Shown here: piece by piece, positions 18,665-57,851 of the stretch
Numbering within the stretch: position 1 is the first letter of the stretch
How the letters are laid out: every line of letters starts with the position of its first letter
Origin: Draconibacterium orientale
GTDB taxonomy: Bacteria; Bacteroidota; Bacteroidia; Bacteroidales; Prolixibacteraceae
Direction: 5' to 3'
DNA: 64,000 bases
Assembly: GCA_020726265.1 (NCBI GenBank)
Contig: DYSZ01000002.1
Span: 1,262-65,261, forward strand
Notes under the pieces: model-generated
The model's database searches: none
Seen by the model: the letters and a program-made list of their open reading frames with translations, nothing else
Told to the model about the DNA's origin: nothing
Position numbers and translations under genes: made by a program

Positions 18665-18697
18665 AGCCTCCCCCCTGCCCCTCCGATGGAGGGGTGA
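18665..18697. repeat. GC-rich hairpin repeat ('SPLS.GEG' family), copy 1
   Basis: agcctcccccctg-cccctcc-gat-ggagggg. In the 137-nt spacer between the two permease genes. Confidence 0.7.
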
Positions 18698-44450: not shown

Positions 44451-44950
44451 GTGCGCCGTACATGCTTATCATTTTGAAGGAGTAATTCCTTTATGGGGGT
44501 CGGGTAGTTCAACCATTAGCCAAGAGCAAGGGTGTGCATTGTGAGGTGGAATCTGAAGGATGCTGGCGGCAAAGTACTGAACCGTGGAACACGAACCACC
44601 TCAGGCATTTCCAACCGGACGGGTTTGCAATACAAAACGAAGTACAACAACTACCCGGAGGTTGAGGGTGTAAACAGATATGGAAACAATGGAAAAATAT
44701 CAAGACGAAACGTCGAACCCTTATAAACCTTGGCATTCCAAAACAAAAAGCTTGGGAATATGCAAATACAAGGAAAGGTTTCTGGCGCACAGCCCAAAGC
44801 CCAATACTGCAAGTAGGCATATCCGATGACCGGTTACGTCAATGGGGTTACGTCTTTTGCTCGGATTGCTATAAAACTGTTCATCGTGTACAATAAAGAA
44901 CCGCCGTGTACCGAACGGTACGCACGGTGGTGTGAGAGGTCGGAACATGA
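44451..44950 (+). ncRNA. ORF-less group II intron ribozyme, class C (IIC)-like; 3' boundary uncertain (44945-44995)
   Basis: Starts GTGCG 3 nt after the terminator T-run. The domain V-like hairpin at 44899-44932 (aaccgccgtgtacc-gaac-ggtacgcacggtggtg) has a CGC triad, a G.U wobble and a 2-nt CG bulge. No RT-sized ORF is present. Internal stretches (ggaatctgaagga..cggcaaa, ggaacacgaac, tttgcaatacaaaac) match my recollection of the Oceanobacillus iheyensis IIC intron. Confidence 0.75.
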
Positions 44951-53974: not shown

Positions 53975-56900
53975 CTATTTCAACCCCGCAATCCGCTCTT
54001 CAATCACTTTTATCTTTGCTTCTGCGTCGGCTTGTTTGGCGCGTTCGGTGGCAACAACGGCTGCAGGTGCGCTACTGACAAAACGTTCGTTACTGAGTTT
54101 TTTCATAACTGAGTCCAAAAATCCTCGGGTGTATTTTAATTCTTCTTCAAGCTTTTTCACTTCTTCCTCAACATCGATAAAACTACCCAGCGGAACAAAG
54201 AAGTTGGTCGATTTTACAAGGAACGAAGCTGCGCCTTTTACCTCTTCTGTCACCATTTCGAGCGACGAAAGATTGCCCATTTTTATCACCACACTGTTAA
54301 ACTGTGCTTCAAAACCTTTGTCACCCTGCTGAACTTTCAGTTCCAGCGTTTCCTTTTGAGCAATGTTTTTGTCTGTGCGGATTTTGCGGATTCCCGAAAT
54401 GGCTTCCTTTACATTTTCAAAGGAAGCAATTAATTCAGTATCATATTTTTCAGCTTTTGGCATTTGGCAAATCATAATACTTTCACCAGCCTTTCTTTCA
54501 GTTAACATCTGCCAGATTTCCTCGGTGATAAACGGCATAAACGGGTGCATCAGCCGCAACATCTGGTCGAAAAGTTCAACCAGCTCGTTGTATGTTTTTG
54601 TATCAATTGGCTGCTGATAGGCGGGTTTTACAACTTCGAGTAACCACCCTGAAAATTCGTCGCGAACAGTGGTGTAAACAGTCATCAACGCTTCAGAAAT
54701 ACGGAATTGTGTAAACTGTTCATCAAGTGTAGTAATCACTTCGCCCAACTTATTTTTGAACCATTCGATGGCTAATTTTGAGTGTTCAGGTTGTTCGAAA
54801 TTTGAATCTACTTCCCAGTTTTTTACAAGCCGGAAAGCATTCCAGATTTTTGTGGCAAACCCTGAACCCTGCTGCGGCAGACTTTCGTCGAACAACAAAT
54901 CGCCACCGGCAGGTGAACAAAGCAACATTCCCACACGGACACCGTCGGCGCCGTATTTTTCAATCAGGTCGAGCGGGTCGGGGGAGTTGCCAAGTGATTT
55001 CGACATTTTACGTCTCTGTGCATCGCGCACCATTCCTGTGAAATAGACGTTTTTGTAGGGCAGTTCATTCCTGTATTCATACCCTGCAATAATCATTCTC
55101 GCCACCCAAAAAAAGATGATGTCGGGTGCTGTCACCAAATCAGTAGTGGGGTAGTAGTATTTTATTTCGTCGTTATCGGGTTTACGGATTCCGTCGAAAA
55201 CTGAAATCGGCCACAGCCAGCTTGAAAACCAGGTGTCAAGCGCATCTTCATCCTGTTTAAGGGAAAAGCCTTCCCCATCCCCTCCGAGGGAGGGGTGTTT
55301 TGCTATTACCAATTTTCGAGCCTCTTCTTCATTTTCAGCAACCACAAATCCGTAGTTCTTTTCTCCCTCTCCTTTGGAGAGGGCCGGGGAGAGGCTTTCA
55401 ATATACCAAACCGGAATCTGGTGGCCCCACCACAACTGGCGGCTGATGCACCAGTCTTTTACGTTGCTCATCCAGTGGTTGTAAATATTTTTGAATTTGG
55501 GCGGATGAAATTTGATGGTGTCATTCATCACATTTTCAAGGGCTGGTTTCACCAGTTCTTCCATTTTCAGAAACCACTGTGCCGAAAGTTTGGGTTCAAT
55601 CGGAATATGAGTTCTTTCAGAGTACCCAACTTTGTTGTTGTAGTCTTCAATTTTGGCAATGTTCCCCGCTTTTTCAAGTTCGGGAATGATTTCGTCACGT
55701 ACATCAAACCGGTCTTTTCCAATAAAAAGACCGGCTTTTTCGCTGAGAGTTCCGTCGTCGTTAAAAATATCGATTGAAGGGAGGTTGTGCCGCATCCCTA
55801 TTTCATAATCGTTAATGTCGTGTGCCGGCGTAATTTTCAGACAGCCGGTTCCAAATTCCATATCCACATAATCGTCTTCAATAATTGGAATTGAACGATT
55901 AATGAGTGGAACCAGAACTCTTTTTCCGACAAGATGTTTGAAGCGAGGGTCAGCAGGATTTACACAAACCGCAGTATCTCCTAAAATCGTTTCCGGACGC
56001 GTGGTTGCTATCGTAACAAAAGCCCCCTCCAACTCCCTCGAAGGGGGAGAGTTTAGAGCATCTTCGATGGATTGTAATACTGCTTCAATATTGCCAATTA
56101 CTTCTTCATTCGTAAAACGCAAAATCCGGTAACCTAATTCAGTTAGAATATCAGTTTTGATTTTGTCTAATTCCTGAATTTCAGGTTGATTGTGATAGCC
56201 ACCATCAACTTCTATAACAAGGCTTTTAGAAAGGCAAACAAAATCTACAATAATATCATTGATAATGTGTTGTCGTCTGAACTTTTCCCCCAATTTATTA
56301 GAACGAAGCATTTCCCACAAAACATTTTCAGCCTCTGTTGAAAAACGACGTAATTCTTTTGCATTCTTTTTTAATAACTCATACTCCGTTTTTCGCGCTG
56401 TCTTGTATTGTGGGTTTAGTTTCCCCCCCACGGGGGGATTAAGGGGGGCTTCTATTTTATATTTCAGATAATACAATTTTGATTGAACTTCCCGGTAAAT
56501 CACCTCTTCATCCGACAAAGCAGTTTTGGCAGCCGGGTCCCAATTTACCATTCGTACGCCTCGGTAAACAAGTCCTTTGTTGTACAAATCAACAAAAACT
56601 TTAATAACCGATTCGCTGCGCGGTTCGTCCATGGTGAAGGCGGTTCTGTCCCAATCGCACGAAGCACCCAGTTTTTTAAGCTGTTCGAGAATAATTCCAC
56701 CATGTTTGTCGGTCCAGTCCCATGCATGTTTCAGAAATTCTTCCCTCGAAAGGTCGTATTTATCAATTCCGGCTTTACGGAGTTTATCAACTACTTTGGC
56801 CTCAGTAGCAATCGAAGCGTGGTCGGTTCCCGGAACCCAGCAGGCATTTTTGCCTGTCATTCGGGCGCGGCGTACAAGAATGTCCTGAATGGTATTGTTG

Positions 56901-57064
56901 AGCATGTGCCCCATGTGTAAAACACCAGTTACATTGGGTGGCGGAATTACGATGGTATAAGGTTCACGTTCGTCGGGTACCGAATGGAAAAATTTGTTGT
57001 CCATCCAGTATTTATACCATTTATTTTCAACCGCAGCGGGATTGTACTTGCTCGCAATTTCCAT
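53975..57064 (-). CDS. valS: valine--tRNA ligase carrying four in-frame repeat insertions and an embedded DUF559 endonuclease module
   Basis: Start moved to [24 protein letters not shown] and KMSKS motifs, [11 protein letters not shown] and ISRQLWWGH. 1029 aa against roughly 870-880 aa as I recall for Bacteroidota ValS. Confidence 0.9.
55266..55300. repeat. GC-rich hairpin repeat, copy 8 (in frame in valS)
   Basis: agccttcccc-at-cccctcc-gag-ggagggg. Translated on the minus strand as [11 protein letters not shown]. Confidence 0.7.
55361..55398. repeat. GC-rich hairpin repeat, copy 9 (in frame in valS)
   Basis: ccctctcc-ttt-ggagaggg-cc-ggggagaggct. Translated on the minus strand as [13 protein letters not shown]. 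Confidence 0.75.
56019..56452 (-). mobile_element. in-frame insertion in valS: DUF559/Vsr-like endonuclease module bracketed by inverted hairpin repeats (copies 10 and 11)
   Basis: Left hairpin, 56019-56056: agccccctcc-aa-ctccctc-gaa-gggggag. Right hairpin, 56415-56452: tccccccc-ac-gggggga-tt-aaggggggct. The interior encodes ...[85 protein letters not shown]. Confidence 0.75.
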
Positions 57065-57173
57065 AAAACTGTTTGTAAAAATTGAGGTGCAAATGTACAA
57101 GGAAAAGTTCAGAGTTTAAAGTTTTAAGTTTGTCCATTTAAAGTTTGCAGGATGAATGAGGAGGTAATTTTAA

Positions 57174-57599
57174 TCAGATATCCGAAATGATTGTTTTAAC
57201 GAAATTTCCGGGGGTCATAACGCCAATCTTGCTGTTTTTAAAGTCTTTGACATTCCGGGTGATAATCAAATCAATCTGCCCGTTCAATTCGGCTGAAAAA
57301 TTTTGTAATGCGTCCTCAAAATCTCTGAAATCAGAGTTTAATGCCTGAATGATAGTGTTTTTATCGGTAGTCAGAACGTCAAGTATTGAAATAAGCTGGG
57401 TTAGCTTTTCAATCACTTTTTCATGGGTTGCTGTTTGCCGCAAAAGATAATATACATTACTGATAATTACTGAAGTGATAAAGCCTGTAATTTCTTTTGA
57501 TTCACAGAGTGCCAGCACTTTTGCCGCATTTTCTGAGAATGGCTTTTTGTCAAAAAGGAAATCCAGAATAACATCTGTGTCAATCAATACCCGGTTCAT
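57174..57599 (-). CDS. vapC: PIN-domain toxin (VapC-like)
   Basis: MNRVLIDTDVILDFL is the N-terminal PIN acidic motif. 141 aa, 3 nt downstream of the antitoxin gene. Confidence 0.75.
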   Translation of the reverse strand: MNRVLIDTDVILDFLFDKKPFSENAAKVLALCESKEITGFITSVIISNVYYLLRQTATHEKVIEKLTQLISILDVLTTDKNTIIQALNSDFRDFEDALQNFSAELNGQIDLIITRNVKDFKNSKIGVMTPGNFVKTIISDI

Positions 57600-57602
57600 T
57601 TG

Positions 57603-57851
57603 TTACAGATATTTTTTTGTAAGGCTTTTAGCAAGTTCTTTTTTGTAATCCACATCTTTTGGTGCTTGAAATGAACCCTTTAATGATTTTACAATCGGTG
57701 TTAACTCAACCTTTTCAAGTTTATTTTCATTTGTGATTGCCTTTAAGTAGTTTTCTATAATACCCGATAAACTGCGACCTTTGTTGTTCGCATACTTTTT
57801 AGCCTTTTCAATTATTGTATGCTCTATTGTTAATGTCAACTTGGCATTCAT
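57603..57851 (-). CDS. putative antitoxin (DUF6364-like)
   Basis: 82 aa. KLTLTIEHTIIEKAKKYANNKGRSLSGIIENYLK is an RHH-like N-terminus. Adjacent to the PIN toxin. Confidence 0.6.
   Translation of the reverse strand: MNAKLTLTIEHTIIEKAKKYANNKGRSLSGIIENYLKAITNENKLEKVELTPIVKSLKGSFQAPKDVDYKKELAKSLTKKYL

Follow-up and report, generated by a model that had tools for sequence, protein, structure and literature searches.

The window analysed here is a stretch of 64,000 nucleotides of Draconibacterium orientale (Bacteroidota, Prolixibacteraceae; assembly GCA_020726265.1, contig DYSZ01000002.1, positions 1,262 to 65,261 of the forward strand). It contains a gene for valine-tRNA ligase, valS, into which a cassette with a small nuclease gene is set in frame. 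The gene (53975..57064, minus strand; 1029 codons and a stop) is a single open reading frame (ORF) with the Pfam domains tRNA-synt_1, Anticodon_1 and Val_tRNA-synt_C. The ORF extends over 53975-57100 if counted from a TTG; the ATG at 57064 is the likely start, and the resulting product of 1029 aa is 100% identical to the database protein P0121. Proteins carrying such inserts are already public and are annotated plainly as 'valine--tRNA ligase'.

The whole cassette occupies 56018..56452 (minus strand) and consists of a 5′ terminal unit, an N-terminal extension, a DUF559 domain and a 3′ terminal unit. Its boundaries were set by comparing filled with empty alleles and by residues G206 and G207 of the T. 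thermophilus ValRS structure 1GAX. It comprises 144 codons, is free of stops and is read in the same frame as valS. The match to the T. thermophilus enzyme runs to G206 before the insert and resumes from G207 after it, which places the insertion point at the N-terminal border of the CP1 editing domain of ValS. The junctions in the window ValS read KYKIE/APLNP and ELEGA/FVTI, and empty alleles read KYKI-EGEDG-FVTIATT. The GC-content of the insert is 0.32-0.37, compared with 0.43-0.52 for the surrounding valS. The initial annotation of this locus, made from the sequence alone, had described an in-frame insert at 56019-56452, had located it at this site in ValS and had called it AT-richer than the rest of the gene; the translation is exactly as given there, and the 1GAX alignment and the base composition agree with the other two statements. 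Its figure of about 143 extra residues needs one small correction: relative to empty alleles, about four loop codons are replaced and the net gain is about 138-141 codons.

Nuclease domain and terminal units

The central part of the insert (56054..56374, minus strand; insert residues 27-133) encodes a DUF559 domain, a Vsr-like nuclease domain of the PD-(D/E)XK type. The assignment is based on Pfam, on profile matches to the Protein Data Bank (PDB) and on an AlphaFold2 (AF2) model compared with Foldseek. The Pfam match (PF04480, E = 5.4e-33, 113.6 bits against a cut-off of 20.6) covers profile positions 3-108 of 109, and the structure matches agree with it, so that the complete DUF559/Vsr-like module read by eye in the initial annotation is confirmed over nearly the whole profile. 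DUF559 is the sole protein encoded by the insert, in which Pfam found DUF559, MTES_1575 and DUF2726 only. A conserved N-terminal extension of 17 residues (56375..56421, minus strand) precedes the Pfam domain and occurs in all host-gene classes described below. Residues D70, E81, D83, H87 and D96 are present in the window insert and invariant in 70 wider relatives; VDF, E.D and H are invariant across 56 ValS proteins carrying the module.

The family profile matches the PDB entries 3hrl at 4e-38 and 3r3p at 9.1e-7. The AF2 model of the insert alone reached a predicted local distance difference test (pLDDT) score of 84, with linker residues 5-15 and 142-144 below 50, and in this model the 144 residues are fully taken up by the nuclease and the linkers. 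Foldseek matched the model to 3hrl with a template modelling (TM) score of 0.86 and to 3r3p with a TM score of 0.76 (E = 5e-5); for the Vsr structures 1cw0 and 1vsr, the probability was 0.99, with weak E-values of 0.03-0.05. The full-length ValS model, built on a 121-sequence alignment, had a mean pLDDT of 52, too poor to judge the projection of the insert. The entry 3r3p shows the catalytic domain of I-Bth0305I, a homing endonuclease that cuts the intron-less recA allele next to the insertion site (PMC3239194). VSR, DUF559 and 3r3p fall into a single clade in a survey of PD-(D/E)XK enzymes (PMC3424549).

Selection was estimated by pairwise Nei-Gojobori comparison of 21 ValS carriers. The ratio of non-synonymous to synonymous substitution rates (dN/dS) is 0.09 for the DUF559 core (dS 1.5) and 0.055-0.083 for the ValS host regions (dS 1.7-1.9, near saturation). 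The nuclease core is thus under purifying selection. The linkers encoded by the terminal units behave differently, with dN/dS of 0.47-0.60 and dS of 0.38-0.80; because of this high ratio combined with a low dS, the terminal units are constrained at the nucleotide rather than the protein level.

The two ends of the insert are imperfect inverted copies of one unit of about 31 nt, both with the AAGCC end outward. In the unit, (A/G)AAGCC is followed by a pyrimidine tract (box1), a spacer of 2-3 nt, a second pyrimidine tract (box2), a loop and a purine tract (box3). The 5′ terminal unit (56422..56452, minus strand) is a strict unit with a hairpin of −7.3 kcal/mol and family-wide covariation; on the coding strand, it reads GAAGCC, CCCCCCT (box1), the spacer, TCCCCCC (box2), the loop GTG and GGGGGGA (box3), and it encodes an 11-residue peptide. 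The 3′ terminal unit (56019..56049, plus strand), recognised by sequence comparison as an inverted copy, reads AAAGCC, CCCCCTC (box1), the spacer CAA, CTCCCTC (box2), the loop GAA and GGGGGAG (box3), with one G-T wobble, and is translated on the minus strand, also into an 11-residue peptide. The 5′ end on the coding strand is GAAGCCCCCCTTAATCCCCCCGTGGGGGGGA and the reverse complement of the 3′ end is AAAGCCCCCTCCAACTCCCTCGAAGGGGGAG. In translation, the terminal units are disordered Pro/Gly/Ser-rich linkers. The 3′ unit followed by CTTTTGTT on the coding strand (56023-56047, minus strand) also fits a simple intrinsic-terminator pattern, situated amid an essential gene.

A perfect pyrimidine/purine hairpin of at least 5 bp, usually 7 bp, was found in 143 of 162 cassette termini, with 15 stem variants. 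In 61 distinct termini, C-G to T-A exchanges occur at five of the seven stem pairs, and the number of compensated cells in the stems was 72, compared with 23 ± 8 in shuffled and 3-11 in slid controls; the percentage of paired positions is uninformative, because these termini were selected for having a hairpin. Among the 131 informative termini, box1 mirrors box2 perfectly in 96 and is a perfect direct copy in none, its mean identity to the mirror being 0.93 versus 0.78 in mismatched controls. This mirror relation covaries across elements (cassette termini of loci L008-L087 and window units), and a description of the two boxes as direct repeats was dropped after the test. An intramolecular Y-R-Y (pyrimidine-motif) triplex or, in duplex form, H-DNA has the same layout, a mirror pyrimidine repeat with a complementary purine tract after it, and the units may fold in this way in vivo. 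No Rfam family matches the terminal units.

Strict units, defined by a perfect 6-7-bp stem and a mirror box, occur six times in the window (at 18667, 22671, 52034, 55270, 55365 and 56422), compared with 0.05 in shuffled sequence; with looser copies, the number is at least 10. Most of the window units are intergenic and close to the 3′ ends of genes, and four lie within valS, all four in frame. Besides the cassette ends, these are two solo units from the strict scan, one at 55262..55296 (plus strand; peptide PSLGGDGEG) and one at 55365..55400 (minus strand; 12-residue peptide). Their AAGCC ends point outward around a 21-residue native ValS segment, in the same geometry as the cassette ends. Related cassettes in recG genes, presented below, have the units as well; 124 kb of their flanks contain 0 solo units, whereas the flanks of ValS-class cassettes contain about 3 per 10 kb. 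The units therefore belong to the cassette and not to the genome background. The nuclease gene thus has inverted terminal hairpins of its own, as initially proposed, in the form of two inverted units that are kept in the RecG-borne copies.

Allelic states and fate of the insert in ValS

The 120 proteins closest to the window ValS come from Prolixibacteraceae (Draconibacterium, Tangfeifania, Maribellus and many metagenome-assembled genomes, MAGs). The full module is present in 56 of them, 46 being of type A, like the window, and 10 of type B, which is about 60% identical to A. About 35 have an empty site with the loop EGEDG, and in-frame remnants are retained in 29. The remnants consist of both linkers only (APSQPSPKGKE-FSPPSGELEGA), of linkers with nuclease stubs (P0210, P0235, P0229) or of a single unit. 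Full, empty and remnant states are interleaved at every depth of the neighbour-joining tree of the 120 host parts (a tree without support values). Because empty sites interleave with filled ones among close relatives, the insert is not ancestral to ValS; alignment with relatives thus reveals empty sites, a comparison that the initial annotation had suggested. Since the insert recurs in 56 independent ValS clusters and at 32 genome loci, an assembly artefact is ruled out, and the dN/dS of 0.055-0.083 in the host parts rules out a valS pseudogene.

The insert and its host gene are discordant, types A and B occupying this site in hosts that are close relatives. Between P0126 and the window ValS, identity is 91.7% over the host part and falls to 59.7% over the insert, and the correlation between insert and host identity is weak (rho 0.26). 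A filled and an empty allele (L002 and L003) with 96% identical flanks point to a recent gain or loss; in the filled one, 439 nt stand in for 16 nt. Mismatches between the two, counted per 100 nt upstream from the junction, are 8, 10, 3, 2, 0, 0, 0, 0, 6 and 0, a series that looks like a co-converted donor flank. In a second pair (L005/L004), identity is 86.6% beside the junction and 93.9% on the other side. No target-site duplication was found at filled versus empty junctions, where a loop of about 10-16 nt is replaced. Apart from a purine-rich GAA/AAA ahead of the unit and TT behind it, letters that probably belong to the unit itself, no common target motif was found at the ValS, IleRS and RecJ-type junctions.

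Such a pattern might also be produced by an inert passenger, i.e., by one or a few entries into valS of a cassette with an inactive nuclease, its patchiness resulting from descent, deletion and ordinary homologous recombination between relatives. Any insertion in a conserved gene is movable between relatives via its flanks, and the many decayed forms agree with this account. It is at odds with the core dN/dS of 0.09 and the invariant putative catalytic residues in 56 carriers, with the occurrence of two divergent nuclease types at one site and with the architecture being kept in at least 15 host gene families (next section). We consider an inert passenger decidedly improbable.

The reading frame is kept in all deletion derivatives, which are of varied length, as it is in 80 of 80 related DNA loci. 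This conservation indirectly suggests that the nuclease is permanently displayed on ValS. The insert is not an intein, because the junctions have no conserved nucleophile (56 carriers) and no His-Asn, the Pfam scan of the insert found no Hint domain, and deletion forms unable to splice stay in frame; the junctions also vary among carriers. The initial annotation had reached the same view from the junction residues. An Rfam scan of the whole window at gathering score gave a sole match at 44535-44699 and no intron model in valS. The insert is coding throughout and has no non-coding room for a ribozyme. Removal of the insert before or during protein synthesis is unlikely.

The case for removal comes from Draconibacterium halophilum. 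In its genome record (CP048409, L001 5304-8388), valS is split into four called ORFs, with the nuclease ORF in a frame that differs from that of the ValS parts, and the nuclease has an NCBI entry of its own as a 138-aa 'endonuclease domain-containing protein'. Each frame change lies inside a hairpin unit, and stable hairpins stand on both sides of the insert, as might be expected if RNA splicing, hairpin-directed translational bypass or protein splicing produced a mature ValS without the insert. However, a frame kept in all loci and all remnants would be needless if the segment were removed, and neither the junction residues nor the Rfam and Pfam scans of the insert offer a splicing apparatus. 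All three D. halophilum frame shifts lie within C/G runs of the hairpin units and one is uncompensated, so they fit homopolymer sequencing error. They are probably such errors, which create false pseudogenes, and the out-of-frame ORF was judged less likely to be a sign of RNA-level removal. Removal by any of the three routes is barely credible.

Related cassettes in other host genes

A scan at the DNA level, with one genome per species, yielded 159 relatives, the best 80 of which (49-86% identity) were analysed as loci. All 80 are embedded in long ORFs and are in frame over both junctions. ValS is the host in 32 loci, where the insert stands before TTRPET, and Bacteroidales families use the same site. 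IleRS accounts for 18 loci, with the insertion point between YPFE and FPADFIAEGVDQTRGWF, and RecG for 26, with the cassette between DEQHRFGV...KKG and PPHILVMTATPIPRT. Three loci are in a SpoIID-like gene, before FDVCADDHCQ, and one is in a CapF-like gene, before HMLPGYTHNI. The insertion points adjoin highly conserved motifs (TTRPET, DQTRGWF, MTATPIPRT and FDVCxDDHCQ). The locus labelled as a Limnohabitans (Betaproteobacteria) MAG (L077) has a RecG cassette whose nuclease groups with Flavobacterium RecG copies and is probably a binning contaminant.

A full HMMER search against 1.84 billion representatives returned 22,386 matches. Of the 149 best, 51 have 60 aa or more on either side and count as embedded. 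Pfam analysis of 20 embedded representatives added LeuRS (two sites), RecQ, RecJ, MnmE, the MetH activation domain, adenine deaminase, a DegT aminotransferase, GT1 and GT2 glycosyltransferases, a MobA-like transferase and SpoIIE phosphatases to the hosts. The architecture is thus kept in at least 15 host gene families, and the Pro/Gly-rich junction peptides are alike in nearly all embedded representatives. One LeuRS representative (P0389, 1079 aa) contains, within the synthetase, both a DUF559 insert at 283-384 and a NUDIX domain at 520-643. No description of in-frame DUF559 cassettes was found in the literature searched, most subscription journals being outside its scope, and an earlier description is possible.

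The range of hosts bears on the suggestion, also raised as a possibility in the initial annotation, that the nuclease is a domesticated appendage, used by the hosts for nucleic-acid binding, defence or quality control. Aminoacyl-tRNA synthetases often gain appended domains, and the strong purifying selection on the domain would suit such a role. The insert is missing, however, in close relatives, even in alleles with 96% identical flanks; the domain is lost by in-frame deletions that leave ValS intact; and the hosts (synthetases, helicases, glycosyltransferases, MetH and SpoIID) are functionally unrelated. Domestication is, in our view, very improbable.

In a neighbour-joining tree of 81 nuclease cores (without support values), grouping follows the host gene instead of the taxon. 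Both the IleRS and the RecG nuclease clade include copies from Winogradskyella as well as from Polaribacter, and one Prolixibacteraceae IleRS insert falls among the flavobacterial IleRS inserts, apart from the ValS inserts of Prolixibacteraceae. Moves between genes are therefore rare compared with persistence and spread at one gene site. Site-specific nuclease lineages are the pattern of homing elements.

Free-standing copies with their own start, stop and flanking units exist and are more distant. One of them is a DUF559 gene between leuD and leuA (L088 1330-2010), which has inverted units with the GAAG ends inward and is also flanked by a diverged duplication of about 110 bp that includes the leuA start region. 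Inverted terminal units occur in every host-gene class. In L006 (1-960), an IleRS fragment, the cassette has perfect 30-nt terminal inverted repeats (TIRs), the nuclease is frameshifted and internally deleted and IleRS is truncated; this is either a decaying copy or an assembly chimera. In phage and plasmid collections, no close relative of the cassette was found that might serve as a vector, the best matches being stand-alone DUF559 genes, 38-50% identical.

Terminal units in every class bring up a hairpin-dependent transposon as the main alternative to homing. Here, DUF559, as a transposase-like nuclease, would recognise or cut the structured units and move the cassette and, in trans, the solo units, as likened to repetitive extragenic palindromic (REP) sequences and their REP-associated tyrosine transposases (RAYT); in-frame copies in permissive loops would be the insertions that survived selection. 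This would explain the hairpins in 143 of 162 termini with their 15 stem variants and C-G to T-A swaps, the mirror relation of box1 and box2, the low dS of the linkers (0.38-0.80) versus 1.5-1.8 elsewhere, the abundance of solo units in the window and in ValS-class flanks, the free-standing copies with flanking units and the many host genes, with 51 of the best 149 representatives embedded. On the other side, one gene site is tracked by nuclease lineages across genera and orders, the nucleotide position in valS is identical in Marinilabiliales and Bacteroidales, and the junctions have no target-site duplication. At most one of the 80 kept loci occurs per genome (one genome per species scanned), and RecG-class ends have no solo copies in 124 kb. 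We also know of no PD-(D/E)XK enzyme of the Vsr clade that is a transposase. This alternative is considered unlikely.

Mode of spread and kinship with known elements

With moderate confidence, we interpret the insert as a selfish, site-specific, non-splicing homing-endonuclease cassette that is read through by the ribosome. A Vsr-like DUF559 gene of the same PD-(D/E)XK clade as I-Bth0305I, bounded by the two inverted units, lies in a beta-turn that leads into the ValS editing domain. Translation would run through the cassette, and ValS would keep the nuclease as a looped-out extra domain. The presumably active nuclease would cut cassette-free valS alleles, with a putative cleavage site near a conserved sequence coding for 10 residues, and recombinational repair from a filled allele would copy the cassette and some flanking DNA. 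A filled allele would be immune to the nuclease, because the cassette interrupts the target site. A cassette without continued spread would decay by in-frame internal deletions to hairpin-only scars. The mobility pattern, the cassette's own hairpins and the kept frame support the selfish nuclease gene, set in frame in essential valS, that the initial annotation envisaged; the many host genes, the site-specific nuclease lineages and the kinship with a proven homing endonuclease are new beyond it.

Several points weigh against the read-through homing interpretation. The module consists only of a catalytic domain of about 110 aa and an extension of about 25 aa, which makes the source of specificity puzzling; the footprint of I-Bth0305I, about 60 bp, depends on a large DNA-binding region at its N-terminus (PMC3239194). 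Terminal inverted repeats are not required for homing, but the ends covary and show conservation at the nucleotide level, which hints at a DNA-level step outside the homing model. Old vertical inheritance within each gene could be partly behind the clustering by host gene. The co-conversion signal comes from two allele pairs, the neighbour-joining trees lack support values and dS is near saturation. The nuclease ORF of D. halophilum, out of frame with valS in the genome record, also belongs here.

A broader interpretation, which we advance tentatively and somewhat less readily than we would an even chance, is that the cassettes represent a class of bacterial mobile element not recognised so far, for which the term 'read-through homing cassettes' is suggested. 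Such an element would combine a minimal Vsr-clade nuclease with structured ends that serve both as DNA-level mobility or recombination signals and as flexible linkers, which would allow it to enter conserved genes without an intron or intein, and the solo units that abound in some genomes would be its non-autonomous offspring. The ends could adopt a triplex or H-DNA fold through the mirror repeat and hairpin. Homing and transposition could also act together, if a cassette rarely transposed to a new gene and then spread by homing within it.

The arrangement of the cassette is akin to known homing endonuclease genes and to in-frame selfish elements. It shares the catalytic fold and clade with EDxHD/Vsr-like homing endonucleases such as I-Bth0305I (3r3p, E = 9.1e-7, TM 0.76); the cassette has conserved acidic and His residues that may correspond to the catalytic residues of these enzymes, and both occupy conserved sites of conserved genes and are patchy among alleles. 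Known EDxHD members are multidomain proteins with a large DNA-binding part and are free-standing between split-intein halves, located in group I introns or break a gene up into two ORFs. In contrast, the cassette is a catalytic domain alone, translated within the host protein, with inverted hairpin ends and no intron or intein. An N-terminal DNA-binding region as in the EDxHD enzymes was not found in the insert, where about 25 conserved residues precede the domain and no other Pfam domain is present. In the I-Bth0305I family, free-standing ORFs between split inteins and ORFs in group I introns are described, and one that fractures an intein-less gene (PMC2677866).

Inteins with a homing endonuclease resemble the cassette in being set in frame in conserved motif regions of essential genes, in their cycle of invasion, decay and loss and in having nuclease lineages bound to one insertion site. 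Unlike inteins, the cassette has no Hint blocks, nucleophile or His-Asn; its excision is not expected, and it would be tolerated as a linker-tethered domain. In fungal mitochondrial rps3, LAGLIDADG genes have reportedly been found in frame without an intron or intein of their own (Sethuraman and colleagues, 2009). These are likewise homing endonuclease ORFs fused in frame inside a host protein gene, but they are organellar, belong to another nuclease family, lack terminal hairpins and are isolated cases.

The repeats also have counterparts. Rickettsia palindromic elements are said to encode no enzyme and to be longer than the cassette units (Ogata and colleagues, 2000). The solo units in valS and the hairpin-only scars behave like these elements; the cassette units differ from them in flanking a nuclease gene, in the design of mirror repeat plus hairpin and in their unrelated sequence. 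REPtrons are intergenic, and their RAYT is an HUH Y1 transposase of the IS200/IS605 type. They share with the cassette an enzyme gene between inverted short structured repeats and the presence of many solo intergenic copies, whereas the cassette has a PD-(D/E)XK DUF559 enzyme, which may act on the units, and is an in-frame insert. No HUH Y1 transposase is found in the cassette, where the enzyme is DUF559, and the similarity is confined to the layout. A survey of REP sequences is available (PMC3733652). The terminal inverted repeats of TIR transposons and miniature inverted-repeat transposable elements (MITEs) have their equivalent in all host classes of the cassette; a target-site duplication and a recognised transposase were found neither at the valS junctions nor in the insert. 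Vsr itself is a stand-alone very-short-patch repair enzyme linked to a cytosine methyltransferase. It belongs to the same fold superfamily as the cassette nuclease, but the similarity is much weaker than that to 3hrl and 3r3p, and the cassette gives no hint of T:G mismatch repair.

To our knowledge, homing endonuclease genes enter essential genes only within a self-splicing intron or intein and are otherwise expected to be intergenic or gene-splitting. The family described here seems to represent a third solution, in which the nuclease stays in the protein as a linker-tethered extra domain, in ValS, IleRS, LeuRS, RecG, RecQ, RecJ, MnmE, MetH, SpoIID and sugar-modifying enzymes of Bacteroidota. 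If so, the very large DUF559 family, of unknown function, would gain a concrete role, at least within this branch. The cassettes would also show where core enzymes naturally accept an inserted domain, yield small nucleases whose targets are presumably long and gene-specific, and serve as a testable model for the entry of short structured repeats and whole domains into proteins. Should they form a new element class, a general route by which proteins gain inserted loops and domains would be conceivable. The C/G runs at either end of the cassette disrupt the ORF when an assembly is error-prone, giving rise to false pseudogenes and false stand-alone 'endonuclease' genes.

Two further features of the window may be mentioned. 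Directly upstream of valS, at 57174-57851 (minus strand), a PIN_3 gene and a DUF6364 gene form a toxin-antitoxin-like pair. The Rfam match at 44535-44699 (plus strand) is to group-II-D1D4-3 (RF02001, 72 bits); it is followed by ORFs for an SBF symporter and a CNNM/CorC transporter, with no reverse transcriptase or maturase ORF among them, and looks like an ORF-less group II intron fragment.

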